From IMG/VR virus record IMGVR_UViG_3300048599_000194, positions 239,177 to 303,176 of that record: 64,000 nt of DNA. One strand, given 5' to 3'. Below are positions 6,476 through 64,000 of this stretch, in pieces; the stretch's first letter is position 1; each line of letters starts with the position of its first letter. The position numbers were made by a program, and so were the translations under genes. Below the pieces are notes generated by a model, which worked only from the letters and a program-made list of their open reading frames with translations, was not told the DNA's origin and made no database searches. The DNA is from a virus (taxonomy: Duplodnaviria; Heunggongvirae; Uroviricota; Caudoviricetes).

Positions 6476-6502
6476 CTATAACCTCATTAGTAGTTAAAAG
6501 TA

Positions 6503-6531: not shown

Positions 6532-6536
6532 TAAAA

Positions 6537-11675: not shown

Positions 11676-12048
11676 GTTGAATCTTGTCTCGCAAGGTATT
11701 CAATCCATCCATAAATGCAATTTCACCTGCAACATATGAAGGCTTAGTTAAAATCACATGATTCATTTCCTTATGATGAGCATACATATATGCGTTAAAA
11801 TCCATCATGTCGGTTAATTGGTCCATATTAATTTCAACATCACCATCACCTTCAATCGTAATAGTAGAACTATCTCCAAAATCATCATCCTTACACATCT
11901 TCAATATTTCATCCAATACTTCATATAAACTATCTTTATTCAGTTGCCTCATCAAATTCAGTAAATCAATAATAGTCAGTTCAACATTAATGTCAGTGTA
12001 TGCATTTTGAAATCTATCGCCGCGATCAACACTGTGCTTAAATCTCAT
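11638..12048 (-). CDS. hypothetical acidic protein
   Basis: 136-aa ORF. Confidence 0.5.
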   Translation of the reverse strand: MRFKHSVDRGDRFQNAYTDINVELTIIDLLNLMRQLNKDSLYEVLDEILKMCKDDDFGDSSTITIEGDGDVEINMDQLTDMMDFNAYMYAHHKEMNHVILTKPSYVAGEIAFMDGLNTLRDKIQHDFCEDIFDGNI

Positions 12049-12686
12049 CCCAGCCTCACGTTCTGAGTAGGTCGAATACTCTCAGAAATATACTTTTGAG
12101 TGTCTTTTGAGAGTGTTACTACATTACACAACGTAAGTAGTTTAGGATCAGCCTCTTGACATTCCTTCATCAGTCGAATCATACTAACACAATCATCAAA
12201 TGCCATGTGAGCATTCTCAGAACTTGTAATAGCTGATAGTTTTCCAACCCCATAATGCTTCTTGAACATTGGAAGAGTATCTCTGAATATGCAATTATTC
12301 TCAAGTCCCAAGAAATCACAATACCACTGTACGAATGTTTTCTCGAACTTTGCATTATGTGCAATACAAATATGGCCTTTTACGAATTCGTAAAATTCTT
12401 TGAAAGCTGTAAACGTATCCGGTGAATCTTCCACCATTTCATTACTAATCTTAGTCAATTCCGTGATTTTATACGGGATCCTAATTGGAGACTTTGGGGA
12501 AAATGCAAATGGCTTGGCGAGAGTATGGAAAATTTCATTCCCTGTCGGAGTCACCTTAATAGCGGCATATTCAATAATTCTAGCGGCTTTCCACGGAACG
12601 AATCCAGTGGTTTCAAAGTCAATAAAGACAATTGTTTTTGTTTCGGATAGCGCGAGGTGCGGTATATCCCAGCTACGTGGCTCCAT
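12045..12686 (-). CDS. DEDDh-family 3'-5' exonuclease (DnaQ/RNase T-like)
   Basis: Exo motifs IDFETTG, AHNAKFE, H...AFDD. Confidence 0.65.
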   Translation of the reverse strand: MEPRSWDIPHLALSETKTIVFIDFETTGFVPWKAARIIEYAAIKVTPTGNEIFHTLAKPFAFSPKSPIRIPYKITELTKISNEMVEDSPDTFTAFKEFYEFVKGHICIAHNAKFEKTFVQWYCDFLGLENNCIFRDTLPMFKKHYGVGKLSAITSSENAHMAFDDCVSMIRLMKECQEADPKLLTLCNVVTLSKDTQKYISESIRPTQNVRLG

Positions 12687-22418: not shown

Positions 22419-22952
22419 TCATTCCCAATCAAAGAGCTTATCGAGAGTAGACCACATCTTAGCGGCTTCGAGGTGATCAACTCTATAAAGAGTTTCTCTG
22501 AAATACGGATATTCCCTACGATATTTCCGCCACTGTTTCAAATTCGACGTGAATTCACTGTATTCGATATTAGTGATTCGATCTGCGAGCTTCACTAGAA
22601 TAGCATCGGCATTGGTAGCAAGTAGAGGATATGTGGCTCGATGCCGCTCTTCACGAGTCTCACCGGGCTGATCTGTAACCAGCTTCACGATGTCAGCCAC
22701 TTGATCACCAAAACGGGACCGAACTTCCTTGATCTTTACGTCAGTATCCTCAACCACATCATGCAAGATTCCAGAAACTTGCAGGTGAGGGTGCGACTCA
22801 ACGGTAAATCCAAATCTATTCAAAGTCTGGCATACGTTAGCCAGATGGAAAATATACGGCTTGTCCTTATCGTAGAACTGTGATCCGTGATTCTCCGTGG
22901 CAAAAATCAATGCCTGGAAATAGATACTTTGAGAGTCTGCCAACTTATTCAT
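22419..22952 (-). CDS. HD-domain hydrolase, SpoT/Mesh1-like (putative (p)ppGpp hydrolase)
   Basis: H...ILHDVVEDT...KLADRITN pattern of RelA/SpoT HD domain; start at Met with GAGGAGG SD. Confidence 0.6.
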   Translation of the reverse strand: MNKLADSQSIYFQALIFATENHGSQFYDKDKPYIFHLANVCQTLNRFGFTVESHPHLQVSGILHDVVEDTDVKIKEVRSRFGDQVADIVKLVTDQPGETREERHRATYPLLATNADAILVKLADRITNIEYSEFTSNLKQWRKYRREYPYFRETLYRVDHLEAAKMWSTLDKLFDWE

Positions 22953-23298
22953 CGTCGTCCTCCTCGTTAGTCGTATCATTAAGATACGGGAGTTCTCCCT
23001 TAGCTTCTACCAGCTTTTCCATGTGAGTAGTGATTAGGGTGTGCTCTCCATGATGGCGAATGATCTTGCCATTGACTTCCATTGTGGTGGGATTATCACC
23101 ACTAAAACTATCATACCCATCATCACTCTTAATTGGCTTGCGAGTAATTTCAAGATACTTATCGTCTCTTCTAGGAAACCAGCGAATCTCAATTAGGTCA
23201 TCTTCGTATTTGTCAGAATCACCTAATATGATTCGAGCCATTCTAACAAAAGCATCTGGCTTGCATCTTTTACGAACAATAGTACTCAAAAGTACCAT
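22945..23298 (-). CDS. hypothetical protein
   Basis: 117-aa ORF. Confidence 0.45.
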   Translation of the reverse strand: MVLLSTIVRKRCKPDAFVRMARIILGDSDKYEDDLIEIRWFPRRDDKYLEITRKPIKSDDGYDSFSGDNPTTMEVNGKIIRHHGEHTLITTHMEKLVEAKGELPYLNDTTNEEDDDE

Positions 23299-33244: not shown

Positions 33245-34006
33245 TTAGAATGTGAAACTCTGACCCTTTGTGACAAATCCATTAAATCCATCTGCGATTG
33301 CATCCGGCTTATCTCCCGGCTGATAATGGTAAAGCCACATCTTAGATTTGGTATTCTCAGGGAGATTCTTCAAATCAGAATAATGTGCATGCACTCCGCT
33401 CTTGAATGGTGCAGTTTCACTATCATGGAAAATGACATCTGCCATATCATAAAACTTAGTCAATTGATTTGGAGCAAACTGAGTATCTCCGGTGAAGAAA
33501 ATAGTTGGCGCTCCGACCACCATATCTTGAATCATGTAGCCGTAAGACTCAACGATCTTAAATCCATTCATGACATGAACCGTCTGAACCGGACGGAATT
33601 GAATTCCTTCCCATTCAAAAGTCTCATTAGGGCTGACAAGATTAAGTGGAAAATAATCTTCCAACTTTAGCATCTTACCTTCGACCGATTCAAGGCCACC
33701 TGCAAGGGACTTATTCCAAATATCATGGAGAAGACTACCAACTCCATACAATTCAGGTTTACGACCAGGAACAAAGTATCGAGAGAACGCCAACCACTCA
33801 ACACCACCACAATGATCTGCATGTGCATGAGTAAGAGTAAATGCGTCAATGTCCTTGGCAGACAGACCCAATTCAGCAAGACCGAATCGAGCATCTCCAC
33901 CAATATCGATTAGGAAATTCTTACCATTCTTCTTCACAAGAAGATTGGATTGATAGTATTCCTTGGTAGTAAATGCACTACCACAGCCGACAAATTGAAG
34001 TTCCAT
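33245..34006 (-). CDS. MBL-fold metallo-hydrolase
   Basis: THAHADHCGG (HxHxDH) motif; AAGGAG SD. Confidence 0.65.
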   Translation of the reverse strand: MELQFVGCGSAFTTKEYYQSNLLVKKNGKNFLIDIGGDARFGLAELGLSAKDIDAFTLTHAHADHCGGVEWLAFSRYFVPGRKPELYGVGSLLHDIWNKSLAGGLESVEGKMLKLEDYFPLNLVSPNETFEWEGIQFRPVQTVHVMNGFKIVESYGYMIQDMVVGAPTIFFTGDTQFAPNQLTKFYDMADVIFHDSETAPFKSGVHAHYSDLKNLPENTKSKMWLYHYQPGDKPDAIADGFNGFVTKGQSFTF

Positions 34007-34820: not shown

Positions 34821-35627
34821 TTACGAAACCACTTCAGGAGGCATTGCATATCCGTCCATTTGCGGAACAAACTTAAAGAAATATCCTTTATCTTGTGAGA
34901 GAATCGGACCTTCCTTATCGATCTTCCAGCCACTCTCATCACGAACCACGAATGCTCCACGCTTACAATCGGTCGGATAATCATTCCAATTCTGACCAGC
35001 TTCCACAATCATGTCGTGTAGTTGTGGGATTTTCTTCGACTGTAGCTTTCCGTGACTATATAGAGCGCGAGCAACCATCTGAACCGAGTTCTTAGAAGCA
35101 TCGTTCTGACGCCAAAGAACTGCGTTGTAGGCTTCCCAGCATTCCGAAACAGTGTATGCCCGAGAATCAAAGTGCGCCAACTTCATCTTGGAAATGAAAT
35201 CGTTAATTTCATCTCGACGGTAATCAAGATCAAACTCAAAACTATCATGAATGCACTTCAATAACCACCGTTTGTTGAATTCAGCAGTTGCAATTGCCGC
35301 AGAAACAGAAACCATCTTCTGAAGATTTCCGTCGAACCATTGAGCGGTTCCTCGCTCATCAAAGTCGGTGAGGATCAAAGTGATCTCATCGCTCTGAGTA
35401 TATCCAATCTTGACATTCTGGATATTCTCACAGAGCGCCAAGGTAGTCGCCTGCATGCAATCCATCAAACTTCGATCAAATGGCTTCTCACATCCACGAG
35501 TGAAAGTGTGAAATGACTTTCCGTCGAGTCGAATAATCGTGTAAGTGCGACGAGGAAGATAGTACCGAGTACGATCTTCGTGCATCTTCATCCGATCTCC
35601 GAGAGAATCCTTGCTATTCATAGACAC
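34821..35627 (-). CDS. Thg1-like protein (tRNA-His guanylyltransferase family)
   Basis: RLDGKSFHTF...EKPFD...VKIGYTQSDEITLIL matches Thg1 core RxDGxxFhxF / GQSDE region. Confidence 0.6.
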   Translation of the reverse strand: MSMNSKDSLGDRMKMHEDRTRYYLPRRTYTIIRLDGKSFHTFTRGCEKPFDRSLMDCMQATTLALCENIQNVKIGYTQSDEITLILTDFDERGTAQWFDGNLQKMVSVSAAIATAEFNKRWLLKCIHDSFEFDLDYRRDEINDFISKMKLAHFDSRAYTVSECWEAYNAVLWRQNDASKNSVQMVARALYSHGKLQSKKIPQLHDMIVEAGQNWNDYPTDCKRGAFVVRDESGWKIDKEGPILSQDKGYFFKFVPQMDGYAMPPEVVS

Positions 35628-35644
35628 ACCTCCAGTTTCTTAGT

Positions 35645-35675
35645 AAGATACTATGAGTGGCACCCATCGTCAACA
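35645..35675 (-). promoter_or_regulatory. promoter-like motif
   Basis: AAGATACTAT-N14-GTCAACA upstream of Thg1-like gene. Confidence 0.55.
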
Positions 35676-35690
35676 ACTAAATACAAATTA

Positions 35691-36398
35691 ATGAGCACTT
35701 CAATTAAAATCAGACCAATAATAGAAAGCAATGATAGTAATAAATGTAAATTGCACGTTTTTCATCTACCATGTTCTAACACAATCAAATTAAATATATG
35801 TGATTCTTTAGAATTTTACTCAGATGTAGATCTTCCGTTCGTAATCGATCCTGATTCAGATATTCAAAGCATGATTAATTTCTTCGAAATGTTATGTTCT
35901 AACTATAGGGCAAAACTATCAGAATTAAATGAACTAATAGAAAAATACAATACAGAATCTACAGAATATAGCAATGATCTAATACATAACTTATTCACAC
36001 TATTGAGAATTGTTAAGCAAGGTAGAGCACATTCAATTGAATTCTCTGCAGGTCTTGAAAAAATAATAAAAGAATATAATTCAACGAAATTGAATGAATA
36101 TTTTATTGACGTTACTGAAATTCAATCCGAATTTGAAATTCTAGCTGAAATGGTAACTGATACAGTGGAAATGGTATCTCATTTGAATGAAAATGATACA
36201 AATAACTTAATGAAAAAACTAACAAAATATACTTTAATATTCACCCCATTAAACTTGTTAGCTGGAATGGGTGGAATGTCTGAATGGAGCACATTTGTCG
36301 CATATGCTGGATTAGGTGGATTCTGGGGTTATATATTGTTCGCAATATTATTAATTATTATTGGAATATCAACCTCATATTATTTCAGAACTAAGTGA
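35691..36398 (+). CDS. CorA-like transporter-family protein, truncated, with variant GMS in place of GMN
   Basis: C-terminus LIFTPLNLLAGMGGMSEW + 2 TM + YYFRTK resembles CorA TM1-GMN-TM2; plus strand; start at first Met after minus-gene overlap. Confidence 0.5.
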   Translation: MSTSIKIRPIIESNDSNKCKLHVFHLPCSNTIKLNICDSLEFYSDVDLPFVIDPDSDIQSMINFFEMLCSNYRAKLSELNELIEKYNTESTEYSNDLIHNLFTLLRIVKQGRAHSIEFSAGLEKIIKEYNSTKLNEYFIDVTEIQSEFEILAEMVTDTVEMVSHLNENDTNNLMKKLTKYTLIFTPLNLLAGMGGMSEWSTFVAYAGLGGFWGYILFAILLIIIGISTSYYFRTK

Positions 36399-42140: not shown

Positions 42141-42170
42141 CAAAAAAGCCCTCTATTCCTAGAGGGCTTT
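42141..42170 (-). terminator. rho-independent-type terminator downstream of tRNA-His
   Basis: AAGCCCTCT-attcct-AGAGGGCTT followed by T6 on minus strand. Confidence 0.65.
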
Positions 42171-42172
42171 AG

Positions 42173-42255
42173 GGTGTAAGACGGGACTCGAACCCGCAAG
42201 CCTCTCGGCACCAGAGTCACAGTCTGGAATGTTTACCAATTCCATCACCTACACC
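42173..42255 (-). tRNA. tRNA-His(GUG) with encoded G-1
   Basis: Cloverleaf; anticodon loop CUGUGAC; extra 5' G pairs with C73; T-loop TTCGAGT. Confidence 0.8.
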
Positions 42256-42261
42256 ATTAGG

Positions 42262-42600
42262 TCATCTGTAGAGGCACATATGACACCCATGATCTCCATT
42301 TCGATAACCTCTACGGCAAAGAAATGAATACAGGTTGTCGTTCAATATACTCTCAACAAATACAACTCTCGAATATTTATCTGCGAGCTTCTCGATTTCA
42401 TCTAGAAATGAAGAGAAGTATCCCTCTCCGCGAAATTCCTCAACAATTTCAATAGTTGCAAGATCTATTGTATTCCTCATTTGGCCTTCGATTAACCTCT
42501 GAGTTATACGATAGTAGAGATTAAGATGATACTCAGGAAGATAGATCCACTTATTGGTTCTACCACCCAACTTCAACTCATTCTCTATGGCATCAATCAT
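42262..42600 (-). CDS. hypothetical protein (possible GNAT-like)
   Basis: 112-aa ORF; weak resemblance only. Confidence 0.4.
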   Translation of the reverse strand: MIDAIENELKLGGRTNKWIYLPEYHLNLYYRITQRLIEGQMRNTIDLATIEIVEEFRGEGYFSSFLDEIEKLADKYSRVVFVESILNDNLYSFLCRRGYRNGDHGCHMCLYR

Positions 42601-42609
42601 CGTGTATGT

Positions 42610-42640
42610 AAGATACTATGTATGACCTTGTACGTCAACC
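42610..42640 (-). promoter_or_regulatory. promoter-like motif
   Basis: AAGATACTAT-N14-GTCAACC. Confidence 0.55.
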
Positions 42641-42646
42641 ACCTTT

Positions 42647-43144
42647 TCACATTCTATAAATCAAAATTCCAATTTTGAACTCGTGCGGAATTTCAAACTT
42701 CTCCAATACATTCTGCAGATGACGAATCTTCGCAGTATTGTGAATGTCCAAAACAGGAGAATCATACACCCCAAACGTATCGCACATGGAATGTACTTCG
42801 ATGGATTCGCATTCTTCTTCACAGATGTAAATGTGATCATGCTTCACATATCGATGACCTCGAAATTCGGTCGTAATGTTGGTATACGTGTCGAAAAACT
42901 CGTCTTCAGATCCAAATTCATGGAGAAACTCATCCACCTCATCGTAGCAGGTACGCTCAATCTTAGTTTTTGTAGTATACTCCACCTTAGGGGCACCACA
43001 CATGGAACAGAAAGCTCCATCTCCGGACTTCTTATCTCCATGAACATTACACTTAAGTCGAACTTCGAACTTATCTTCTCCAGGTACTCGCATATCTGGA
43101 ACGATAATCATAGGTCCATTGTGAACGTAACAAGAATATCCCAT
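42647..43144 (-). CDS. hypothetical protein
   Basis: 165-aa ORF. Confidence 0.45.
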   Translation of the reverse strand: MGYSCYVHNGPMIIVPDMRVPGEDKFEVRLKCNVHGDKKSGDGAFCSMCGAPKVEYTTKTKIERTCYDEVDEFLHEFGSEDEFFDTYTNITTEFRGHRYVKHDHIYICEEECESIEVHSMCDTFGVYDSPVLDIHNTAKIRHLQNVLEKFEIPHEFKIGILIYRM

Positions 43145-43172
43145 CGTATCCTCCTAGATTTTAGTGTACTAG

Positions 43173-43204
43173 AAAGATACTACGAGAGCCTTAAAATGTC
43201 AACC
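43173..43204 (-). promoter_or_regulatory. promoter-like motif
   Basis: AAGATACTAC-N15-GTCAACC. Confidence 0.55.
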
Positions 43205-43207
43205 GCC

Positions 43208-43774
43208 TCACTGCTCCGTCTTACACTTACATGCATCTTTGGCTAGAAACGATGCTCCATTCGAGATCAGATTAGCCAATTCACGCTTGCTCATGGGGAT
43301 GTCAATGACGCCTGCCCCTGGGATGTTGATTGACACGATAGCCTCTAAATCGTCGCCTGGAGCCTCTTCTGCCGCTTCCTCTACGGATTCTTCGGAGTCC
43401 TCCGCCTTAGTTCCAGGAAGCTCGAAGTGATATGCGCCTTCAAACCACTCAAGATACTCATCAACAATATCCTCAAAATCAGACAATTCAGAGTAAATAA
43501 CAGTTTCTGGGTCTAATTTGAGTGAGAAATTAGTATATAGGATAGCTTCCTGCGCTTGTTCTCCAACTAGAATTGGCTGGCGATTATATCCCTCAGGCAT
43601 CTCAAATTCCTGAAAGTATTCACGAACGGTGTTATGTTTTACAAACACTCCACTAGTACGAACAATCTGAGTGACGTTATATGCAGTAAAAGACTTTCCT
43701 GCATCAACCAACATCTCAACAACGGTCGCAATATTCTGGACGATGTCCTCATTAGTTAAAATCAAATTACTCAT
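43208..43774 (-). CDS. hypothetical acidic protein
   Basis: 188-aa ORF. Confidence 0.45.
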   Translation of the reverse strand: MSNLILTNEDIVQNIATVVEMLVDAGKSFTAYNVTQIVRTSGVFVKHNTVREYFQEFEMPEGYNRQPILVGEQAQEAILYTNFSLKLDPETVIYSELSDFEDIVDEYLEWFEGAYHFELPGTKAEDSEESVEEAAEEAPGDDLEAIVSINIPGAGVIDIPMSKRELANLISNGASFLAKDACKCKTEQ

Positions 43775-43991
43775 TCTCAGTTTTCTCCTTGTTTATTTCT
43801 CTCACTAGTTCAGTCATCTGCTTTTTTTGACTTTTCGTCATAGAGCCGATGATCATCATTAAGTCCACTGGAGGTGGAGGCTTAAACATCACAATATCAT
43901 TCTCGACCCACATTTCGACACCAATTGATTTGATGTGATATAAAAGACTAAGTATGACATTCGTACTCTTTCCATTATTACGCATGCTCAA
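43767..43991 (-). CDS. hypothetical protein
   Basis: 74-aa ORF. Confidence 0.4.
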   Translation of the reverse strand: MSMRNNGKSTNVILSLLYHIKSIGVEMWVENDIVMFKPPPPVDLMMIIGSMTKSQKKQMTELVREINKEKTENE

Positions 43992-45264
43992 ACTCCACCA
44001 AGTACGTTAGGTTAGCTTGATTCACATTATATACAATCATTTCATTATTCTGAACTCCAGACTTACCGCCTACTGCGTAAGTGGAATCATAGCCCTTCAT
44101 TGGAAGATTAGAAGATGATCTGCTAGGAGTATATGCCTTACCCATTGCAACATCTGCCAAGAACATGAAACAATTATTATTGCGCCCTTTACCACTATGC
44201 CAATAACCTGTAGCATAGTTAAGCGACTTTGTGGATTGATCACTGAAATACAATCCATCTCCAAACATTCTACCACATACATGAGGCGCATTTGATCGAG
44301 GGATTACTAGACCTTGTTTCAGAATCGAAAGCACATTAGAAATCTGAGTTCCATGCCAATACTCATTGACATTACCAAGTTTCTTCGCCACTGGCTCAAA
44401 TCGAATAGTAGTTTCTGGCATCTGAACTTCAAACACTCTAAACAGCTTATACGCAGATGAAGAGTGAGAACGATTCAAGGTACTCTTGAACTTTTTCTCG
44501 ATTCTATCAATCACCTTCTTATCAGCGACCAAATTGAGAGATACGTTAAAAATCTTAGGAGTCTCTATATTCTCCACTTCAACAACAGTATCCACCTGAG
44601 AATTGACCATTAGGAGAGACGCTTCGAGCGAATCAAGAATCGAATTCTGCTGGAGAATATCTGCATCTGAAGTGTATAGTTGATCGGGACGGATGCGCAT
44701 CCCAACATTCTGAGGAATGAATGTCAAATACTTCTGAAGCATCTCATGATACTTCGAATCTTCAAACTTCTTTGCAAGAATGAAGTCAGACATAGAAATT
44801 AGGAGTTTTCGCGCAGAAGTGATAGAATTCGAGGATACTATTCCAATCGGAGTACTGAAAAGTCCAGTATCCACGTTATACGTCATCGTAGTAGATGACA
44901 GAATTTCATGGACGTTCATCTTCGCCAGTTGCTTAATCAAATCCCCGACTACCGAGGAATTCGAACCAATCTGAGATACCGCAACGCTCTCCAATGTTGT
45001 GCTTGGGGCAACAGAAACAGATTTACCTGTTTCGATCACATCCTGCTTAACATATCCCTTTGCTTCCTTGGATCTCATTTTTGAGTGAGCCGCTTGAAGA
45101 CCTTTATCATGCGATCCAAAATTCTTGGTGGTCGAATCACCTGCGTATCCAATCCGACCCCATTCAAAAACAACATTTCCATCATCGTGAACGGTGTATT
45201 TCCAGAACTTATTATTGTTTCCTGAAATATTGGTCAAGGTTAATGTTGCAGTTTCAAGTACCAT
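43978..45264 (-). CDS. PARP-like ADP-ribosyltransferase (WGR domain + PARP catalytic domain)
   Basis: N-terminal WGRIGYAGD (WGR); C-terminal YWHGTQ..N..SIL, GRMFGDGLYFSD..SKS..Y, NNEMIVYN match the PARP H-Y-E signature blocks. Confidence 0.65.
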   Translation of the reverse strand: MVLETATLTLTNISGNNNKFWKYTVHDDGNVVFEWGRIGYAGDSTTKNFGSHDKGLQAAHSKMRSKEAKGYVKQDVIETGKSVSVAPSTTLESVAVSQIGSNSSVVGDLIKQLAKMNVHEILSSTTMTYNVDTGLFSTPIGIVSSNSITSARKLLISMSDFILAKKFEDSKYHEMLQKYLTFIPQNVGMRIRPDQLYTSDADILQQNSILDSLEASLLMVNSQVDTVVEVENIETPKIFNVSLNLVADKKVIDRIEKKFKSTLNRSHSSSAYKLFRVFEVQMPETTIRFEPVAKKLGNVNEYWHGTQISNVLSILKQGLVIPRSNAPHVCGRMFGDGLYFSDQSTKSLNYATGYWHSGKGRNNNCFMFLADVAMGKAYTPSRSSSNLPMKGYDSTYAVGGKSGVQNNEMIVYNVNQANLTYLVEFEHA

Positions 45265-45350
45265 TTTCGCCCCTGAATCTATTATAGCATTTTCACGCTA
45301 TGTTGACGTTCTTTGATCGCATTACACACAGCTAATTACAGAAAATCAAA

Positions 45351-45422
45351 TTTCCCCCACAGGATTCGAACCTGTATTCGCGGGACCAAAACCCGCTGTC
45401 CTGCCAATTGGACGAAAGGGAA
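45351..45422 (-). tRNA. tRNA-Gln(UUG)
   Basis: Cloverleaf; anticodon loop UUUUGGU; U1-A72. Confidence 0.75.
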
Positions 45423-45542
45423 GTTAGGATTGGCATGTCCAGTAGGGATTTCACCTACACTGCAGAATCGTCATCCTGACACCTCTAAGCCGAGGCCGCT
45501 ATCATATTCACCCTAAACAGGTCATTTTTGCGTATGGACAAA

Positions 45543-45615
45543 TGCACGATGAGGGACTCGAACCCACGGTGTTCTGCGTGTAGGGCAGATGCTTTAGCCG
45601 CTAAGCTAATCGTGC
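45543..45615 (-). tRNA. tRNA-Val(UAC) (C33 instead of U33)
   Basis: Cloverleaf; anticodon loop CCUACAC; one T-stem mismatch. Confidence 0.55.
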
Positions 45616-45741
45616 ATGGTGACATGGCTAAACCGAAATTCCATGTCGTAAGTTGAGCCGTTATACGGTATAGCTCATCTATTTTTTGAGAGGTTGCAGT
45701 GCATCCACCAAGAACCCACCTCACAAGAATGGGGATGTTCA

Positions 45742-45823
45742 ATTAAAATAGACCGCACAGGACTCGAACCTGTCATCTAGGAGTGTCCACCTAAGCATTG
45801 CCCAGAATGCTCCACCGCCTATC
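45742..45823 (-). tRNA. atypical tRNA-like element (class-II-like; 5' acceptor not resolved)
   Basis: Perfect T-arm ACAGG-TTCGAGT-CCTGT, extra arm, anticodon-like hairpin GCATT-CUGGGCA-AATGC; no partner for 3' acceptor strand. Confidence 0.3.
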
Positions 45824-45825
45824 TA

Positions 45826-45896
45826 ATTGAAGTTGGGACGAGAGGATTCGAACCTCTGTTAACCGAGTCAGAGTCGGCCTTCCTGCCACTAGAAGA
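45826..45896 (-). tRNA. tRNA-Gln(CUG)
   Basis: Cloverleaf; anticodon loop CUCUGAC; U1-A72. Confidence 0.75.
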
Positions 45897-46018
45897 CATC
45901 CCAAGTAAACTGCGCGGAATTCCTATTATCTCATCTTCAGTCTCGGTATTCGCCCCCGATTAATCTGAATACTCCTTCATAGGCGGTTTCGAATTCGTGT
46001 TCCCGCTGACACGCACCT

Positions 46019-46228
46019 TCAACTTACTGTTAATTGTTCCGTCATACTGGTCGATGATCTATATATTAACTGACCTCCATTACTACAGTTTCTAATAACT
46101 CCGAGTCGATATGGAGATGTTCTAGTGAGTTTTAACTTAACGTCACATTCAGAACAGTATCCAGTAGACTCATATGGATCATACGAATTCAACGTACTGA
46201 TTTCTTCTCCGCACATTGGACACTTCAT
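46019..46228 (-). CDS. small zinc-ribbon protein
   Basis: 69-aa ORF with CPMCGEE...CSEC. Confidence 0.4.
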   Translation of the reverse strand: MKCPMCGEEISTLNSYDPYESTGYCSECDVKLKLTRTSPYRLGVIRNCSNGGQLIYRSSTSMTEQLTVS

Positions 46229-46388
46229 TATTTCCTACTTCCCGCATTCACATGGTTCTTTTCCACATCCAGGGCATAAACCCTCTCTTAGTCTCTTATG
46301 TATCTTACATTCTGCAATCGTATCGAATCGAAACGGTCTGCCGTTAATATGAGATGTTCCATCGAGATCCGTCTCTTTTCCAGTTGTT

Positions 46389-46544
46389 CTAGGCTTCCGA
46401 TTCATTCAACAATTCCTCTAATTCTTTTTTCATTCGAATACGAGTCGATCCAGTATCTCGTTCCCTTGGGTCATATGGATCATCGTTAGCACCATATGGT
46501 TTCATTTTAGGTGGAGCGTGTCTTGTTGGCTTATTTCTTTTCAT
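46389..46544 (-). CDS. small hypothetical protein (51 aa)
   Basis: Read by eye; below ORF-track cutoff. Confidence 0.25.
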   Translation of the reverse strand: MKRNKPTRHAPPKMKPYGANDDPYDPRERDTGSTRIRMKKELEELLNESEA

Positions 46545-46563
46545 ATTAACTTCCTTTACTTAG

Positions 46564-46647
46564 TACCGGAGGAGGGACTCGAACCCTCACGCCCTTTCGG
46601 GCAACGGATTTTGAGTCCGTCGCGTCTACCAATTCCGCCACCCCGGC
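46564..46647 (-). tRNA. tRNA-Leu(CAA)
   Basis: Class II cloverleaf; anticodon loop CUCAAAA; resembles E. coli Leu tRNA. Confidence 0.8.
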
Positions 46648-47035
46648 ATCATGGAGTTGAGGGAAATCGAATCCCTGTCCTAAACAGCTTCAAAAAAGAC
46701 ATCTACAAGTTTAGTTTCTATTTTAATCTCACAGAATCAATCGTCTAAAAACAAACTAGAGATTCTGCCAGTCCATTAATCTCGGTTACATGCATGAACT
46801 ACTTTGCAACCTATCCAATATGTTGAACGCTTGCGACTATTATGGAATTTCGTCGTAGCGCCTCGCCGTTACTTAAGCGGCGAGAGCGTAAGAGTAGGAC
46901 TCTTCTGCATTTATTGTTTTCAGGTTTTTACGAGGCCACCTGACCCTCGACTTGCATTCTCATTCTACCCTATTCAGTCGAAACCTTTACAACCCCTTAA
47001 TCCCTTAAAGCGTCAAGTCACGATTTAAGAGAAGT

Positions 47036-47118
47036 GCGCAAGGAGGGACTCGAACCCTCACGCCCGAAAGGGCACTACCACCTCAAAGTAGCGGGTCTAC
47101 CAATTCCCCCACCTGCGC
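47036..47118 (-). tRNA. tRNA-Leu(GAG)
   Basis: Class II; anticodon loop UUGAGGU. Confidence 0.75.
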
Positions 47119-47122
47119 ATAT

Positions 47123-47311
47123 TCACAAATTCAATTCTTTCAAGAATTCTCTCGAAATTTGACGACTACGTCTAATTTCTTCTTCAGTTATTGGAGTTTC
47201 TCTAACAGATTCAGATCTTATTAATCCATTTGAATATCTAGAATTTTCTTCATGTCTTTTCAAGATTCGATCAATTTCTGACATTCCATCATTTTCGTCA
47301 ATGTCGCTCAT
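47123..47311 (-). CDS. small acidic protein (62 aa) between tRNAs
   Basis: Start with GGAGGG SD; longer ORF-track version would overlap a tRNA. Confidence 0.4.
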   Translation of the reverse strand: MSDIDENDGMSEIDRILKRHEENSRYSNGLIRSESVRETPITEEEIRRSRQISREFLKELNL

Positions 47312-47328
47312 CAATATACCCTCCAGAG

Positions 47329-47412
47329 TGCGCAAGGTGGGACTCGAACCCACACGCCCTTACGGGCACCAGATCCTAAGTCTGGCGCGTCTACCAATTC
47401 CGCCACTAGCGC
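47329..47412 (-). tRNA. tRNA-Leu(UAG)
   Basis: Class II; anticodon loop CUUAGGA; U-U at 5-68. Confidence 0.75.
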
Positions 47413-56110: not shown

Positions 56111-56214
56111 TGGGGGAGGCCGGATTCGAACCAACGATCAAGAAGTCGGACCATTGTCTGCTGACGCATTGACTGGCACTGCCTCTTAGCTTTAAGCCTC
56201 TAAGCTACTCCCCC
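56111..56214 (-). ncRNA. oversized tRNA-like RNA (104 nt)
   Basis: Perfect acceptor GGGGGAG/CTCCCCC, canonical D-arm GCTT-AGAGGCTTA-AAGC, T-arm with two G-U pairs; ~48-nt multi-hairpin insert replaces anticodon arm. Confidence 0.35.
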
Positions 56215-56402
56215 ATTTTCCTGAAATCCTACCAGAAAGTGCCGTTTCTAGATAACGACTAAAGATTAAAACACCTTTCTAGCATTTCTCATTCTGACAA
56301 TCTTTCTTGTTGCAAAATGAGTTTTTCGACTTTCCTATTATTCAAATAAGAGGATTGAAAAACAAAGACTGAAAACAACCACTAGTCTAGGATTTCAGGA
56401 AG

Positions 56403-56475
56403 CTGGGGATGCAGGGATCGAACCTGCGACGGGTTGGTTAACAGCCAACTGCTCTACCTACTGAGCTAATCCCCA
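56403..56475 (-). tRNA. tRNA-Asn(GUU)
   Basis: Cloverleaf; anticodon loop CUGUUAA; U1-A72. Confidence 0.8.
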
Positions 56476-56704
56476 ATTTAGTCACAACCCCTGTTTCCAG
56501 AGGCCAAATTAATGTACTTCCTAAATGAAGTTAGAGGGTTCGATGCCTTTATTCATTTAGTTTTCGAAAGTCGTTTTCGTTCGATTTGATGAGGTATTTG
56601 CAGATCGTAAACCGACTGCCAGAGCCTACCCGACTTACTTTTTCGAATGTGGATCCATATCCGTGCCTAAAATCGACAAAGCACTACATTCTAGAAGTAC
56701 AAGT

Positions 56705-56777
56705 GGACACATGTGGGATTCGAACCCACGACATCCTGCGTGCAAGGCAAGCGTTCTACCAACTGAACTAATGGCCC
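56705..56777 (-). tRNA. tRNA-Ala(UGC)-like with mispaired acceptor stem (possible pseudogene)
   Basis: D, anticodon (CUUGCAC) and T arms fold; acceptor has 2 mismatches. Confidence 0.4.
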
Positions 56778-56963
56778 ATTTCAAATGTTCGGAGTTTCCT
56801 GCAATCTTTTTAGAATCTAGACATTGCAATATCGTTGATTCCTGTTAGTGCAGTTTTCGTCTAATAGTCCGAGGGATTAGTGGACTTCAAAGACTTTTTC
56901 GAGTTTCTATACAAAGATGCCGGAAATTTCCCCCGAACGACCTTAACTCTAGAAACTCCGAAG

Positions 56964-57035
56964 TGGAGAAGATGGGACTTGAACCCACAACAATCTGCTT
57001 GCAAAGCAGGCGCTCTACCATTGAGCTACGACCCC
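56964..57035 (-). tRNA. tRNA-Ala(UGC)
   Basis: Anticodon arm CCTGC-UUUGCAA-GCAGA like E. coli alaT; G3-U70 present; two acceptor mismatches. Confidence 0.6.
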
Positions 57036-57198
57036 AGCAACTAATTGTCGATGACCACTACACCAAAATACCTTTCGAGGGGCTATGAGTAGTGTCTTTC
57101 GCTGTTTTGTTTGGTTCCTAACAGTACCTCATGTTTTTCGGATTGCATTTCTGCTAGATTCTATAGCCAAAAAAAGAATCTTCCTAGTCATCGACAAA

Positions 57199-57272
57199 GT
57201 GTGCAAGGGTGGACTCGAACCACCGACCTTCTCCGTATCAGAGAGACGTTCTAACCAACTGAACTACTCGCA
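57199..57272 (-). tRNA. tRNA-Ile(GAU)
   Basis: Cloverleaf; anticodon loop CUGAUAC. Confidence 0.8.
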
Positions 57273-57356
57273 CATTAACGGTTCCAGAGGGAGGACTACC
57301 TCCTATCCAACTAGCTATCTTGGAATTATTCACGAACATTGAATTCGTCTCTGAAG

Positions 57357-57432
57357 TGCCCCAGGTCGGACTCGAACCGACCACCTTTGGATTTTCAGTC
57401 CAACGCTCTGACCTCGTATGAGCTACCGGGGC
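57357..57432 (-). tRNA. tRNA-Phe(GAA)
   Basis: Cloverleaf; anticodon loop CUGAAAA. Confidence 0.8.
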
Positions 57433-57560
57433 ATTGAGTCTTGATGTGTATTTGGCTGACTCTTCGCCATATGTGATGCACATCTCACCTTGCAACATCT
57501 ACCGATTATCTATTGCACGTTCTTTATCAGATTCTTTCGAATCATCCTCGGAAGAAGCAG

Positions 57561-57632
57561 AGCACTGAGTGGGAGTCGAACCCACGTCTTCAGATTGGAA
57601 ATCTGAGATAATAGCCGTTATATGACCAGTGC
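57561..57632 (-). tRNA. tRNA-Gly(UCC)
   Basis: Cloverleaf; anticodon loop UUUCCAA; U73. Confidence 0.8.
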
Positions 57633-57646
57633 ATTGACTATCACAG

Positions 57647-57720
57647 TGCGTTAGGAGGGAATTGAACCCCCGACCTAGAGCTTAGAAGGCTCCCGCTCTA
57701 TCCAACTGAGCTACTAACGC
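57647..57720 (-). tRNA. tRNA-Arg(UCU)
   Basis: Cloverleaf; anticodon loop CUUCUAA. Confidence 0.8.
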
Positions 57721-59237: not shown

Positions 59238-61271
59238 TTAGAACTTGATCTTAAGAGTGCGATTCACTCGACCGCCAACTCGCACGGTGAGTTCGTCTCG
59301 CTTGGTTGCCGAGAAACCAACTCCAGACAACTGAGAATCAGTGGGTTCCACCTTCATCTTGCCGCCAAGAGCCGAGAATACTCGCTTGTGCTTCATGAAT
59401 TCATCTCGAAGGTATTCATTGAAGAATCCATTTGGGCTTTCCTCGTTGACAGCGCCCTTCAACATGAAGAAGTAGTGGCGATGTCCAATTCCGTCCTGTT
59501 CGTCCCAGTAATTGGGCGAGTACATGCAGACATGCACTGGATGGAACTGCTGAGTCATGAGATTCCAGGTCTTTCGAGGGGTCATTGTCGAATTAATGAC
59601 CGGGATGAGCTTGAATCCGTTTGCACGAGAATACTCAACCTTAGCCACATCGACGTATTCGTTACCCCTTAGATTCCTAGCACATTCGAACTGATGAATT
59701 TCTCCATCAAATTCGATCTCTGCAGTGAATCCACCCTGACTAGTGCGACCAGCGAAATTATGAACCTTGAATTCATATACACCTTCCTGCAATCGATTAC
59801 GATCAGGCCAAGTGATATTCTCTACTGCAATTGCCTTACCAGGGACTCGAATGTCTACATCCAGATTACCTCCAGATCGATGACCATTGCGCTGTCCAAA
59901 GTAAATGTGATTGTGATTAGGCTCGTGAGCATGTGCATCGAAATCGATGTTATTGTCGCCCTTATCGTTCCACTGAATAGAGAACCTCAAAACTCCATCC
60001 ACCTTACCACCAGCGGACTTGACCCGCTCCTTCATGGAATCCGTCATGTTTCCATTGTAAGCCCAGGAGAATCCATTGTTCCACTTGAATAGGGTCTGAC
60101 TCTCCTTATTCTCAGGTGCAATCAGAGAAACCATATTCTGAGAATGACGATTCTCCAAATACACTTCTAGCGAAGTTGCAGTGGGTAGAACGCCCTTCAA
60201 GAAATCATCAATTGAGATTTCCTCAACTCGACCAAGCGACTTCTGACTAACTCCCTGGTCTTCCTTCATTTCATCGAAAATCGAACCCTTGGTGAGCTTA
60301 CGACTAACCTTTCGATCTGCGAATAGAATGTTCTGGATGGTAATGTCGTCCAGCGTTGCGTGACGACGACCCAGAGAATCAATTAGACCCTCTTCAGTCA
60401 ACATCTTTTCCGCATCTTCGATCATCTTCTTGGTAAATACTTCCTTAGGTCGCATGTAATTGCTAGGAGCAACAACCTTCTCATAGCGAGTAAGAGCCTT
60501 GTCAAGATCCATTCCCTCGGAAAGATCAATCAAAAGGGTTCCAATCGAATGATTGCGAATCTTACCAATTACAGGTCCAACTGCAACGGACTCAACCCAG
60601 CAGAACAAATCCTTATGCTTAGAAGAATTATACTTCTTCTGAAGCATCAAGAACTTCTCAAGATTAGCCTTCCACTCCTCTCCCTTGTAAAGGGACTTCT
60701 GGCGAATGAGATCCAATACAGTCTCAACTGAATCGATGCTGAGTTCCTTAAGAGAACGCTCGAAAACCTGACGAGTTGAATTGTATTCACTCATTGCACT
60801 TCCGATAGTCTCGCGTCCAGTGTACTTGAACTTGCCATCAATGGTGCAATGGAAGTGATTCCATTCCTTGGTCTTTCCATCTTCGCCCATTTCATAGGAC
60901 TTGTCGGTGCCAAAGCTCAAATCACGAGTGACGAATACATTCTCAATTCGCTTGACCTTAACGAACTTTGCGAGTGCATCCACGACGGCCTGCATATCAG
61001 AATCGCCAGCATCAAAATCCCAAATGGTAGTAACGACGCCACCATCGAGGGAAACCACATTTCCGAATGCCTTGACGAAATGCCTGCAACAAGAACAATC
61101 GAACTCCCTACGCTTGCGATACATCGGATTCGTACCCTCAGGGAACGAATCAAGATAAACATTCCAAAGCTCATCCTTATCGAGAGCAATGGTAAAAAGA
61201 GTATTGATGTTCTTGGTCAACTGCTTGACATGCGCCTGCAACCGAGCATTAAACTGCTTAAACGGGATCAT
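59238..61271 (-). CDS. large hypothetical protein (677 aa)
   Basis: Long ORF, GC above local average; family not recognised by eye. Confidence 0.55.
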   Translation of the reverse strand: MIPFKQFNARLQAHVKQLTKNINTLFTIALDKDELWNVYLDSFPEGTNPMYRKRREFDCSCCRHFVKAFGNVVSLDGGVVTTIWDFDAGDSDMQAVVDALAKFVKVKRIENVFVTRDLSFGTDKSYEMGEDGKTKEWNHFHCTIDGKFKYTGRETIGSAMSEYNSTRQVFERSLKELSIDSVETVLDLIRQKSLYKGEEWKANLEKFLMLQKKYNSSKHKDLFCWVESVAVGPVIGKIRNHSIGTLLIDLSEGMDLDKALTRYEKVVAPSNYMRPKEVFTKKMIEDAEKMLTEEGLIDSLGRRHATLDDITIQNILFADRKVSRKLTKGSIFDEMKEDQGVSQKSLGRVEEISIDDFLKGVLPTATSLEVYLENRHSQNMVSLIAPENKESQTLFKWNNGFSWAYNGNMTDSMKERVKSAGGKVDGVLRFSIQWNDKGDNNIDFDAHAHEPNHNHIYFGQRNGHRSGGNLDVDIRVPGKAIAVENITWPDRNRLQEGVYEFKVHNFAGRTSQGGFTAEIEFDGEIHQFECARNLRGNEYVDVAKVEYSRANGFKLIPVINSTMTPRKTWNLMTQQFHPVHVCMYSPNYWDEQDGIGHRHYFFMLKGAVNEESPNGFFNEYLRDEFMKHKRVFSALGGKMKVEPTDSQLSGVGFSATKRDELTVRVGGRVNRTLKIKF

Positions 61272-62888: not shown

Positions 62889-64000
62889 TTATAGCGCCTT
62901 AGTACGCTTCTCCACCTCTTCCATATATTTTTCCAGAGCGAGCTTCTCGTTTACTACCTTCTTAGTGTAAATTGCCACAATTAGCATTCTCTGAGCATCT
63001 CCAAGTGCCTTACCCATGTAGCCTTTATCCATCAGCCACTGAGAATCAATGGCCAATTCTTTATTGCTCAATGGAACTCCATTCAGAGATTTCAATTTAT
63101 TAAGCAGTTCAGAATCATTCATCGAATCAGCCGCATCTTGCATATATTGGAGATAATGTCTATTTTTGAACATTACATTCAAAGCATCCATTGTCTTCAA
63201 CATGCGAGCCAAAGTAATTGCATGAGATACTTCAGTTGGTAATTTCAGCTTGGTATAATCTCCACCGTTCAGAAACAACAATATCAGATTAACTACGAAC
63301 TTATCTCCCTTCACTAGCGAAACTTTCACTGGAATGAAATTTTGACCGAAAATATGCTTTCCAAGACCAGTTTCATTGAGTAAATCAATGATTTTTTCAT
63401 TAGAATGAAATTTTCCCTTAGTGAAAGCCTTCTTGAATTCCTCAAGAATTCTCTCGCCCGTGATATTATCGATTAGTCCAACATTTTCCTTGATAGCTTT
63501 CAAGGTTTCAGGTTCAATTTCAAATCCAAATCGATTTGCGAACTGAATTGCTCTAAGCATTCTCAAAGGATCTTCAGAGAAACGCTCCTTTGCATCTCTA
63601 ACTGCCTTAATTCTGCCCTTTTTGATGTCTTCAATACCGCCAAACGGATCTATGTATTCACCGGTTTCAACATCCTTCGCAATTGCATTGAAGGAAAGAT
63701 CACGACGGCTCAAATCAGCTTCGACTGATAGCGAAGGATCTCCAAAAGTCTGAACATCATCGTGTTTCCCAGATCCGCCGTATACTTCGGTACGAGGAAT
63801 CGCAAAATCATAGGGTTCTTCAGAACCATCAATGATGGCCTTAATGACCTGCATCGATTCTCCAACTCCAGTAGATACGATCTTATCTGAAATTGTAGAT
63901 AATGCCTTCTTAAGATCATCAAATGCAACATTTGTAACCAAATAATCAATATCCTTGGACTTTGCTCCGAAAATTTCATCTCGAACAACTCCACCAACTC
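62889..64000 (-). CDS. cca: tRNA nucleotidyltransferase (CCA-adding enzyme, class II head domain), 5'-partial at window edge
   Basis: Same frame continues to window end and encodes VGGVVRDEIFGAKSKDIDY (GGxVRD...DxD); downstream RRDLSFNAIA and DPLRMLRAIQFANRFGF motifs. Confidence 0.7.
   Translation of the reverse strand, partial: VGGVVRDEIFGAKSKDIDYLVTNVAFDDLKKALSTISDKIVSTGVGESMQVIKAIIDGSEEPYDFAIPRTEVYGGSGKHDDVQTFGDPSLSVEADLSRRDLSFNAIAKDVETGEYIDPFGGIEDIKKGRIKAVRDAKERFSEDPLRMLRAIQFANRFGFEIEPETLKAIKENVGLIDNITGERILEEFKKAFTKGKFHSNEKIIDLLNETGLGKHIFGQNFIPVKVSLVKGDKFVVNLILLFLNGGDYTKLKLPTEVSHAITLARMLKTMDALNVMFKNRHYLQYMQDAADSMNDSELLNKLKSLNGVPLSNKELAIDSQWLMDKGYMGKALGDAQRMLIVAIYTKKVVNEKLALEKYMEEVEKRTKAL

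Follow-up and report, generated by a model that had tools for sequence, protein, structure and literature searches.

The DNA considered here, called the window, is a stretch of 64,000 nucleotides (positions 239,177 to 303,176 of the IMG/VR virus record IMGVR_UViG_3300048599_000194, Caudoviricetes), of which 15.5 kb are occupied by an array of 40 transfer RNA (tRNA) genes representing all 20 amino acids. The array is very probably the translation island of a large, uncultured phage of virulent type, i.e., a supply of tRNAs that would be expressed early and would render translation largely independent of the host tRNA pool. With tRNAs for 20 amino acids, an initiator, a reader of AUA accompanied by its own TilS, a transfer-messenger RNA (tmRNA) and its own CCA-adding enzyme, the array appears nearly self-sufficient for decoding. 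All coordinates are positions in the window and all features lie on the minus strand, unless stated otherwise; coordinates that follow a label such as L001 refer to that relative of the window. The metagenomic relatives used most are L001 (a relative at 98.7%), L011, L014, L016 and L019.

The tRNA genes were detected by running ARAGORN on the whole 64-kb window and Rfam cmscan at gathering thresholds (tRNA cutoff 29 bits). ARAGORN called 40 tRNA genes and one tmRNA gene; they span 42172 to 57720, exclusively on the minus strand, and the rest of the 64 kb has none. Rfam found the same 40 tRNAs (36.9–71.7 bits) and the tmRNA (189.9 bits), together with one extra tRNA match at 56111–56214. The initial annotation, which had folded about 40 minus-strand tRNAs by hand between 42173 and 57720 and had seen every amino acid among them, is borne out: the programs did not report far fewer genes, and their anticodons agree with the manual folds. 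The initiator fMet, Ile2(CAU), and the four Leu (CAA, GAG, TAG, TAA), three Ser (GCT, TGA, CGA), three Thr (GGT, CGT, TGT) and three Arg (ACG, CCT, TCT) isoacceptors that it listed are likewise upheld by anticodon calls and comparisons with E. coli; the anticodon CAT occurs three times.

In the direction of transcription (Rfam scores in brackets), the first gene is tRNA-Arg(TCT) (57646–57720, 71.7 bits), followed by tRNA-Gly(TCC) (57560–57632, 55.6 bits), tRNA-Phe(GAA) (57356–57432, 64.8 bits) and tRNA-Ile(GAT) (57199–57273, 69.1 bits). Then come two genes for tRNA-Ala(TGC), one with G3:U70 and mismatches at 5:68 and 6:67 (56963–57035, 60.7 bits) and one with an irregular acceptor stem (56705–56777, 56.1 bits); one of the pair requires a 1-nt bulge in the acceptor stem and the other two mismatches. 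Next are two genes for tRNA-Asn(GTT) (56402–56475, 67.6 bits; 55780–55853, 65.5 bits) and the initiator tRNA-fMet(CAT) (55706–55778, 67.4 bits), which has a U1·U72 mismatch and A11:U24 and is 87% identical to the E. coli tRNA-Met genes present four times per genome. Beyond the TilS gene lies an ileX-type tRNA-Ile2(CAT) (54819–54892, 70.6 bits), whose top E. coli matches are annotated as tRNA-Ile (89% identity). The central part of the array comprises tRNA-Pro(TGG) (54733–54805, 58.9 bits), tRNA-Pro(AGG), which has A34 (54576–54649, 63.9 bits), elongator tRNA-Met(CAT) (54497–54569, 59.9 bits), tRNA-Trp(CCA) (54100–54175, 48.6 bits), tRNA-Glu(CTC) (53196–53268, 66.0 bits), two genes for tRNA-Glu(TTC) (53118–53192, 44.6 bits; 53028–53103, 44.3 bits, the latter with C33 in the anticodon loop), tRNA-Thr(TGT) (52296–52367, 54.6 bits), tRNA-Thr(CGT) (52090–52162, 65.0 bits), tRNA-Thr(GGT) (52015–52085, 62.3 bits), tRNA-Ser(CGA) (51354–51443, 50.4 bits), tRNA-Ser(TGA), whose atypical D-arm belongs to a gene identical in L016 (51251–51335, 37.5 bits), tRNA-Cys(GCA) (50949–51022, 58.1 bits) and tRNA-Ser(GCT) (50162–50252, 51.8 bits). 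The tRNA-Ala pair and the C33 tRNA-Glu are unchanged in L001 where that locus spans them. A34 is rare in bacteria outside tRNA-Arg(ACG); one relative has another A34 gene, tRNA-Leu(AAG) (L014, 1505–1587).

The downstream part of the array comprises tRNA-Lys(CTT) (49951–50025, 63.9 bits), tRNA-Val(GAC) (49679–49752, 64.1 bits), tRNA-Arg(CCT) (49455–49527, 52.5 bits), tRNA-Gly(GCC) (49372–49443, 59.3 bits), tRNA-Tyr(GTA), which is of class II as in bacteria and has a compensatory anticodon-stem change relative to L016 (48630–48714, 36.9 bits), tRNA-Asp(GTC) (48322–48398, 67.6 bits), tRNA-Lys(TTT) (47607–47680, 69.5 bits), tRNA-Arg(ACG) (47522–47597, 63.8 bits), tRNA-Leu(TAA) (47428–47510, 55.6 bits), tRNA-Leu(TAG) (47328–47412, 58.1 bits), tRNA-Leu(GAG) (47034–47118, 49.0 bits), tRNA-Leu(CAA) (46563–46647, 57.7 bits), tRNA-Gln(CTG) (45832–45903, 57.4 bits), tRNA-Val(TAC) (45542–45616, 62.6 bits), tRNA-Gln(TTG) (45351–45422, 52.0 bits) and finally tRNA-His(GTG) (42172–42254, 51.4 bits), which is class II-like with a 13-nt variable arm, has G-1 encoded at 42255, and ends in C73-C74-T75.

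The set is complete for the 20 amino acids and, judged by its sequences, looks functional. Stems are unbroken in nearly all of the tRNA genes, and identity elements read by eye (G-1 and C73 in tRNA-His; G3:U70 in tRNA-Ala; U73 in tRNA-Cys and tRNA-Gly; G73 in tRNA-Trp, tRNA-Ser, tRNA-Asp and tRNA-Asn; C1–G72 and A73 in tRNA-Pro) mostly agree with bacterial rules; the discriminators of tRNA-Thr, tRNA-Gln and tRNA-Glu depart from those of E. coli. Codon usage, counted over 74 open reading frames (ORFs), is rich in A and T at the third position (AT3-rich), and the use of all three stop codons indicates the standard genetic code. Suppressor tRNAs and recoding were considered and rejected, as no suppressor anticodon occurs and every stop codon is in use. 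By standard bacterial wobble the set reads at least 57 of the 61 sense codons. Genes with C34 are present even for rare codons (relative synonymous codon usage: ACG 0.49, TCG 0.72, AGG 0.70, GAG 0.64), which, together with the initiator and the tmRNA, points to completeness rather than to selective supplementation.

The 3′ ends of these genes have a common property: CCA is encoded in none of the 40 tRNA genes and in none of the 42 tRNA-shaped genes, so that the initial annotation was right about the absence but too cautious about its extent, having ascribed it to most of the genes. Instead, 31 of the 42 tRNA-shaped genes end in N73-C-T (p=3e-30 versus the local dinucleotide frequency). At the 5′ side, the three bases before +1 are AAT in 19 of the 42 (p=5e-18). 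In tRNA-His the AAT stands before the encoded G-1, which suggests that AAT marks the 5′ processing site. As many of the genes are only 1–15 nt apart, an RNase P cut at a downstream tRNA would leave the upstream one with only a short 3′ trailer.

The class II CCA-adding enzyme placed at the end of the window by the initial annotation (62889–64000) stands with respect to its domains (PF01743, PF12627; a PolyA_pol head and RNA-binding domains) and motifs; the start listed for it, 63941, does not, because GGVVRD and DID lie upstream of that position and the ORF runs off the window. In the frame-translation continued to the window end, motifs A (GGVVRD...KDIDY), B (SRRDLSFNA, containing RRD) and D (EDPLRMLRA, containing EDPLR) are present. 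The nearest structure is that of the B. stearothermophilus CCA-adding enzyme (1MIV). The best matches are CCA enzymes (1MIV; NF009814), although all fall under the equivalog cutoffs, PcnB and A-adding models match too, and the N-terminus lies beyond the window; sequence cannot decide between a CCA-adding and a CC- or A-adding specificity. An orthologue of at least 379 amino acids (aa) is present in L001.

The second maturation enzyme, described initially as a TilS-like PP-loop ATPase directly beside an ileX-like tRNA-Ile2, was recovered as such (54898–55503; TIGR02432, 129 bits versus a cutoff of 93.6). This "mini-TilS" is 201 aa long and contains SGGVDS; its stop codon is 5 nt upstream of tRNA-Ile2, placing both in one transcription unit with a shared promoter. 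It aligns to residues 28–229 of the 317 of Aquifex TilS (1WY5), with CSGGVDS aligned, i.e., it consists of the PP-loop N-terminal catalytic domain and lacks the C-terminal tRNA-binding domains (CTD1, CTD2); with the full-length model PRK10660 it reaches 58.5 bits, where the cutoff is 606. Since a promoter lies directly upstream and a tRNA gene directly downstream, there is no split C-terminal ORF. On the basis of this genomic pairing, tRNA-Ile2(CAT) is presumed to be the TilS substrate. In L010, a distant relative linked solely via the mini-TilS, a CAU tRNA likewise lies 48 nt after the mini-TilS gene. The tight operon of TilS and tRNA-Ile2 is a minimal system provided by nature in which substrate choice by a TilS devoid of tRNA-binding domains can be studied. 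A TilS identity was also checked for the 428-aa ORF at 43978–45264, which proved to be a PARP-like protein.

The third enzyme is the Thg1-like protein (TLP) that the initial annotation had located at 34821–35627 (PF04446, E=5.6e-29), which has its own promoter copy at 35673. It is of the bacterial TLP subtype: B. thuringiensis TLP (BtTLP, 4KGK) matches with E=2e-52, versus E=7e-9 to 7e-5 for yeast and human Thg1, and the motifs with the catalytic, metal-binding carboxylates, RLDG and QSDE, align with RIDG and QSDE of BtTLP (RxDG and SDE motifs). The protein belongs to phrog_4717, a phage family already named tRNA-His guanylyltransferase. A Thg1 pattern search in IMG/VR returned nothing, and the homologues were obtained by protein search; where the loci L001, L016, L019, L011 and L014 carry the gene, its product is 73–97% identical to that of the window. 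As G-1 of tRNA-His is encoded, the role of the TLP is more likely repair or proof-reading than obligatory addition of G-1. The sole well-supported plus-strand gene of this region (35580–36398, plus strand) overlaps the TLP start by about 48 nt; its counterpart, an opposite-strand ORF of 236 aa beside the Thg1 gene, is kept in L019, L020 and L022, and it received no family assignment.

With regard to transcription, the motif gGTTGAC-N14-tAGTATCTT gave 18 matches to a loose regular expression, which are confined to the minus strand; 17 of these can be counted as good copies, and the eighteenth, at 15515, is weaker. Two tandem copies stand upstream of the array (58139–58111 and 58037–58009). Within it, one copy precedes the TilS gene (55531–55559, TTGACG-N17-TATCTT), another is upstream of tRNA-Tyr (48763–48791), and a third is upstream of the ORF 42262–42600 and tRNA-His (42610–42638), with further copies near the array end (43202–43174, 42140–42112). 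The motif also precedes rIIA (27102) and the Thg1 gene; the other good copies are at 61358, 21103, 20740, 19078, 18053, 7859, 2918 and 1918. A strong intrinsic terminator, with an 11-bp stem and a T run, directly follows tRNA-His (42145–42170). The internal promoter copies and this terminator argue that the array consists of several early-type transcription units. Several transcription units had been proposed initially from motif copies at 48763 and 55531, positions which are the −10 element ends of two real repeats that split the array.

From these genes, structures, motifs and conserved gene orders, we infer the following timing of expression, route of processing, enzyme activities and selective advantage. 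About 15.5 kb of early polycistronic tRNA operons would be driven by a host-sigma70-like promoter that also precedes rIIA, Thg1 and other early genes, and would deliver 40 tRNAs that serve 20 amino acids, the initiator among them, as well as the tmRNA. The 5′ ends would probably be cut by host RNase P, with a strongly preferred AAU leader before +1, or before G-1 in tRNA-His; the short 3′ trailers would then be trimmed and, because no gene encodes CCA, the ends would be completed by the phage class II CCA-adding enzyme. The mini-TilS would presumably turn C34 of the co-transcribed tRNA-Ile2(CAU) into lysidine; AUA would then be decoded as Ile, and charging of this tRNA with Met would be avoided. 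The TLP, being of bacterial type, would presumably use a templated 3′–5′ reaction to put back G-1 of tRNA-His or 5′ nucleotides that are missing. As far as can be told from the window, the phage must rely on the host for RNase P, 3′ trimming, TadA and every aminoacyl-tRNA synthetase. The net effect may be that AT3-rich phage genes are translated when host tRNAs are limiting, degraded in takeover, or cleaved by tRNA-targeting defences. The proposal of the initial annotation that the phage supplies both the substrates and the enzymes for decoding is consistent, element by element, with what the sequence contains.

Several points weigh against the array as a translation island. The irregular acceptor stems of both tRNA-Ala genes and C33 in one tRNA-Glu suggest that some members may be weak or inactive. 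The mini-TilS lacks the C-terminal domains by which cellular TilS enzymes bind tRNA, which makes its specificity uncertain, and with G-1 already encoded the TLP would not be strictly needed. The window was found to contain neither an aminoacyl-tRNA synthetase nor RNase P, RNase Z or TadA, and the phage is therefore not autonomous. Four codons are insecure: GCC, UCC and CCC require extended wobble by U34 or I34, and CGG requires either an interrupted gene, for which bacteria have no known splicing route, or a host tRNA. Finally, the advantage may lie in matching codons, in outlasting host shut-off or in escaping tRNA-cleaving defences (PMC10264068, PMC11555353), and a choice between these requires the host.

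The initial annotation had not mentioned the tmRNA, the interrupted tRNA-Arg(CCG), a 218-nt tRNA-like RNA, the long arm and G-1 of tRNA-His, or the PARP-like gene. The tmRNA (46649–46996; RF00023, full-length model, 189.9 bits) has G3:U70 in its tRNA-like domain, as read from the sequence, and a tag frame (AEESYSYALAA) ending in ...ALAA; it has no encoded CCA. Its gene has a tRNA-Leu gene on either side, one of them 4 nt away, and is kept in L011; in L016 the tag ends in ALVA. The tRNA-Arg(CCG) gene (56110–56214), called by ARAGORN when introns are allowed, has a 31-nt insert between nucleotides 31 and 32; Rfam (40.6 bits) sees 40 nt in place of 9. It is the sole dedicated decoder of CGG, the only codon for which the set has no other possible decoder. 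The insert occurs once in the window, is identical in L001 and is too short for a group I intron; it has no Rfam intron match, fold inspection revealed no bulge-helix-bulge, and an exact search of IMG/VR with the 3′ half of the gene returned nothing.

The 218-nt RNA (47906–48123) has perfect acceptor, D and T arms and an N73-C-T trailer, and a structured domain of about 170 nt replaces the anticodon arm. No match to an Rfam family was obtained for it. L016 has an identical copy (6409–6626), and a scan of metagenomes gave one true homologue, at 92% identity in contig L027 (1230–1447, minus strand), besides nine unrelated tRNA-Gln pairs. Among the 17 positions that differ in L027, eight form four compensatory pairs and two are G·U-compatible, and none of the 65 predicted pairs is broken; this is probably a stable structured RNA.

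The tRNA-His meets bacterial expectation in its G-1:C73 and GUG anticodon and departs from it in architecture: the place of the class I variable loop of 4–5 nt is taken by a 13-nt arm whose stem has 3 bp, and the D-arm is Leu-like. The same long-arm tRNA-His occurs at 94% identity in two otherwise unrelated IMG/VR arrays (L023, 1495–1577; L024, 2095–2177), with G-1 retained and a compensatory change at 4:69, and sister phages have a normal tRNA-His in the corresponding slot. G-1, C73 and GUG hold in L023, L024, L014 and L019. An exact-match scan of the GTDB species-representative genomes with a 21-nt stretch of the gene found nothing, and a literature search of limited coverage found no report of a long-variable-arm tRNA-His in phages. 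Related arrays contain tRNA-Leu without the long arm, and tRNA-Gln and tRNA-Val with one (L011, 316–390 and 4010–4094; L014, 595–669, 1266–1340 and 3545–3630; L024, 808–1096); gain and loss of the variable arm is therefore recurrent in these phages. In L010 (6443–6760), a tRNA-Leu(UAA) has a 230-nt insert at canonical 37/38 that resembles a classical group I intron.

The bodies of the tRNAs also change by modules. Near-identical genomes differ by the exchange of whole tRNA modules with base pairing preserved: in tRNA-Asn (56402–56475) the anticodon stem is almost wholly exchanged in L001, at four of five positions per strand, with pairing kept; the acceptor stem of tRNA-Val(TAC) (45542–45616) is exchanged in L016 and L019; and in L016 the D-arm and anticodon stem of tRNA-Gly(GCC) (49372–49443) are exchanged. 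In L001 (8126–9082, corresponding to 55780–55901 of the window), a divergent tRNA-Asn allele and an HNH endonuclease gene replace the tRNA-Asn at 55780–55853; beside this insertion, the alleles of tRNA-Asn and tRNA-fMet are swapped for divergent ones with the same acceptor stems. Anticodon positions changed between relatives in 0 of 87 cases, and overall the anticodon and T loops show the least change of all regions.

Several explanations of what maintains such an array were weighed. It is possible, though on balance we think it somewhat unlikely, that the array mainly compensates for the codon usage of an AT3-rich phage (GC3 just 35%), rather than replacing the host pool or evading defences. 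The duplicated genes (Ala-UGC, Glu-UUC, Asn-GUU) do read the most used codons of abundant amino acids in the phage, and the A34 tRNA-Pro(AGG) pairs exactly with CCU, the commonest Pro codon. However, the set is complete, including C34 isoacceptors for rare codons, an initiator and a tmRNA, none of which supplementation requires; a set that is complete and not codon-selective fits host-independence or evasion of defences better than simple codon compensation. The key comparison, that of phage with host codon usage, needs the host, and neither the GTDB scan with one conserved protein nor that with the tRNA-His 21-mer found a match.

An unlikely reading, put forward tentatively, is that this lineage may use tRNA architectures beyond the bacterial canon as working parts, the tRNA bodies being actively diversified and not merely copied from hosts. 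It is suggested by the mobile long-arm tRNA-His, the interrupted tRNA-Arg(CCG), the 218-nt RNA and the exchange of stem modules, taken together; escape from tRNA-recognising host nucleases, with identity elements kept, would be an example of what such diversification achieves. Under this reading, tRNA-Arg(CCG) must shed its 31-nt insert at 31/32 by a route unknown in bacteria.

Distinctly improbable is that the array is largely a selfish or neutral cassette, in which tRNA genes are cargo and targets for homing endonucleases or recombination and a sizeable fraction of them is non-functional. Close relatives do carry genes for HNH (HNH_2, HNH_3), LAGLIDADG and DUF559 endonucleases between their tRNAs, whole modules are swapped inside tRNA genes of near-identical genomes, two tRNA-shaped genes contain large insertions, both tRNA-Ala genes have imperfect acceptor stems, and a class II tRNA-His is shared at 94% identity by otherwise unrelated arrays. 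Yet the window's own array has no recognisable endonuclease gene, and tblastn with the endonucleases of the relatives detected no remnants in it. Furthermore, exchanged stems are fully paired, loops and anticodons are preserved, all 40 genes exceed the Rfam threshold, and conservation extends to gene order, to the processing signatures at the 5′ and 3′ sides and to the dedicated enzymes; mobility accounts for turnover, not for maintenance.

We consider it very unlikely that the tRNAs are mainly non-translational, i.e., decoys or sponges for tRNA-targeting toxins, or aminoacyl donors, e.g. for DNA hypermodification. Phage tRNAs that neutralise tRNA-directed defences have been documented (PMC10264068, PMC11555353), tRNA-dependent hypermodification of phage DNA is the subject of a paper (PMC13219725), and odd members such as the class II tRNA-His and the 218-nt RNA may not decode. 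Against this, a full and balanced decoding set with an initiator, a tmRNA, a TilS for AUA and a CCA enzyme corresponds to the needs of translation, and the window contains no pointer to a tRNA-consuming pathway. That the array is bacterial or plasmid-borne, as in mycobacterial genomes, is extremely unlikely: dense tRNA arrays do occur on bacterial mobile elements (PMC6515697), and TilS, TLP, the CCA enzyme and tmRNA each belong to a family of cellular genes, but the window has rIIA, rIIB, Apyc1 and PHROG-specific families, a single-strand early-gene layout with its 17 good copies of one promoter motif, relatives only among IMG/VR and metagenome contigs, a conserved 576-aa protein without a relative in the GTDB species-representative genomes, and no ribosomal, metabolic or plasmid genes among the ORFs scanned.

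The array thus resides in phage DNA, and its surroundings are those of a one-strand early-gene region: rIIA and rIIB, Apyc1 and many orphan ORFs, with PHROG families present and no structural genes inside the window. The phage has about 40% GC, and its genes use Shine-Dalgarno sites, which indicate nothing further on the host. At the DNA level no relative exists in 50,697 phage records; megablast of the array gave only matches to single tRNAs, which among cultured phage records are isolated, 70–80 nt long and mostly 80–90% identical (90–99% for the best nine). The identity of rIIA to known phages is at most 30%. The metagenomic relatives L001, L016, L019, L011 and L014 share the gene order tRNA array–PARP–...–Thg1–Apyc1–Band_7–rIIA/B, and the array order Leu–tmRNA–Leu–Gln–Val–Gln–PARP is kept in L011, L014, L016 and L019.

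The PARP-like protein (43978–45264, 428 aa) has WGR, regulatory and catalytic domains and retains the H-Y-E motifs; its gene lies between tRNA-Gln and tRNA-His, where the array reaches its downstream edge, and its position is conserved by synteny in L011, L014 and L019. Other ORFs embedded in the array are orphans: one of 180 aa without a family match (48795–49337) is 44% identical to an ORF of L016, and similar ones are at 50455–50865, 51448–51819, 53498–54025 and 47687–47887, the last with codon-spaced substitutions. Outside the array, the protein of metallo-beta-lactamase (MBL) fold at 33245–34006 was first considered as an RNase Z, which would have suited the missing CCA; the likeness is weak (TIGR02651, 57 bits versus a cutoff of 293), and Pfam identifies it as Apyc1, an anti-Pycsar cyclic-nucleotide phosphodiesterase (PF23023, 102.9 bits versus 50). 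Trimming of 3′ ends by an RNase_T-family exonuclease (12045–12686) was considered; the structures nearest to this protein are PolC proofreading domains, and no such claim is made. The window also encodes an R2K ATP-grasp protein (5678–6475), an HD_4 domain protein (22419–22979), a DHH phosphoesterase (4038–4904) and a DUF8224 protein of 677 aa (59238–61271; phrog_1735, E=1.6e-260). The DUF8224 protein, which shares 50% identity with its counterparts from Bacillus and Clostridioides phages, is widespread in phages of Salmonella, Klebsiella and Caulobacter.

Coming from a lineage without a cultured relative, the array is a well-resolved example for the debate on why phages carry tRNAs, and it can be compared with several known systems. 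The cluster of phage T4 has 8 tRNAs and two stable RNAs of unknown function, together with the SegB homing endonuclease; some of its tRNA genes have no CCA, and their products depend on RNase BN and on CCA addition by the host. The two systems have in common polycistronic, closely spaced tRNAs and CCA-less genes that need 3′ trimming and CCA addition, and the 218-nt RNA is a possible counterpart of the T4 stable RNAs. A homing endonuclease lies inside the T4 cluster, as in the relatives of the window, whereas the window's own array is free of endonuclease genes. In contrast to T4, the window has an array five times as large that serves all 20 amino acids, and the phage itself encodes the CCA enzyme, TilS and TLP.

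Larger arrays have been described in Xanthomonas phage XacN1 (56 tRNAs, all 20 amino acids; PMC5852040) and in huge phages (up to 67 tRNAs, tmRNA, CCA-adding enzymes; PMC7162821). Like the window, such jumbo and huge phages have a dense one-strand cluster of dozens of canonical tRNAs for all amino acids, with tRNA-maturation or -modification genes and tmRNA in the same genome. The tRNA sequences of the window are unlike any in cultured phage records. The window differs from these phages in lacking a DNA-level relative among the phage records and in that neither an aminoacyl-tRNA synthetase nor a ribosomal protein or initiation factor was seen; within what it covers, the array does not lie in terminal repeats. 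Mycobacteriophages of cluster C, e.g. Momo (34 tRNAs and tmRNA; PMC4472892), likewise combine a large tRNA set with a tmRNA in a genome of myovirus size, and evasion of tRNA-targeting defences has been proposed for them (PMC10264068); phage-database searches gave no sequence relationship to the window, and the host type differs, the window phage having about 40% GC.

For the enzymes, a phage TilS of about 203 aa has been published for the Pseudomonas phages PA5oct and MIJ3 (PMC6892783). The mini-TilS is 43% identical to these, and the comparison extended to the huge uncultured phages LR745206 and LR756502 (>630 kb) gives 43–48% identity over the full length, all consisting of the N-terminal domain only. 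The mini-TilS gene of PA5oct adjoins no tRNA, whereas that of the window ends 5 nt before tRNA-Ile2, with which it shares a promoter. The TLP resembles bacterial TLPs (BtTLP, 4KGK; phrog_4717), a family annotated in Bacillus and Ralstonia phages; compared with BtTLP, about 29 aa are inserted after residue 119, and its partner tRNA-His is the long-variable-arm form. Given the published precedents of XacN1, the huge phages, tmRNA, TilS and Thg1-like proteins, the array is thus a known kind of feature from an uncultured lineage, to which it adds the operon of TilS and tRNA-Ile2, the universal lack of CCA alongside a CCA enzyme of its own, and the non-canonical tRNA-shaped genes.

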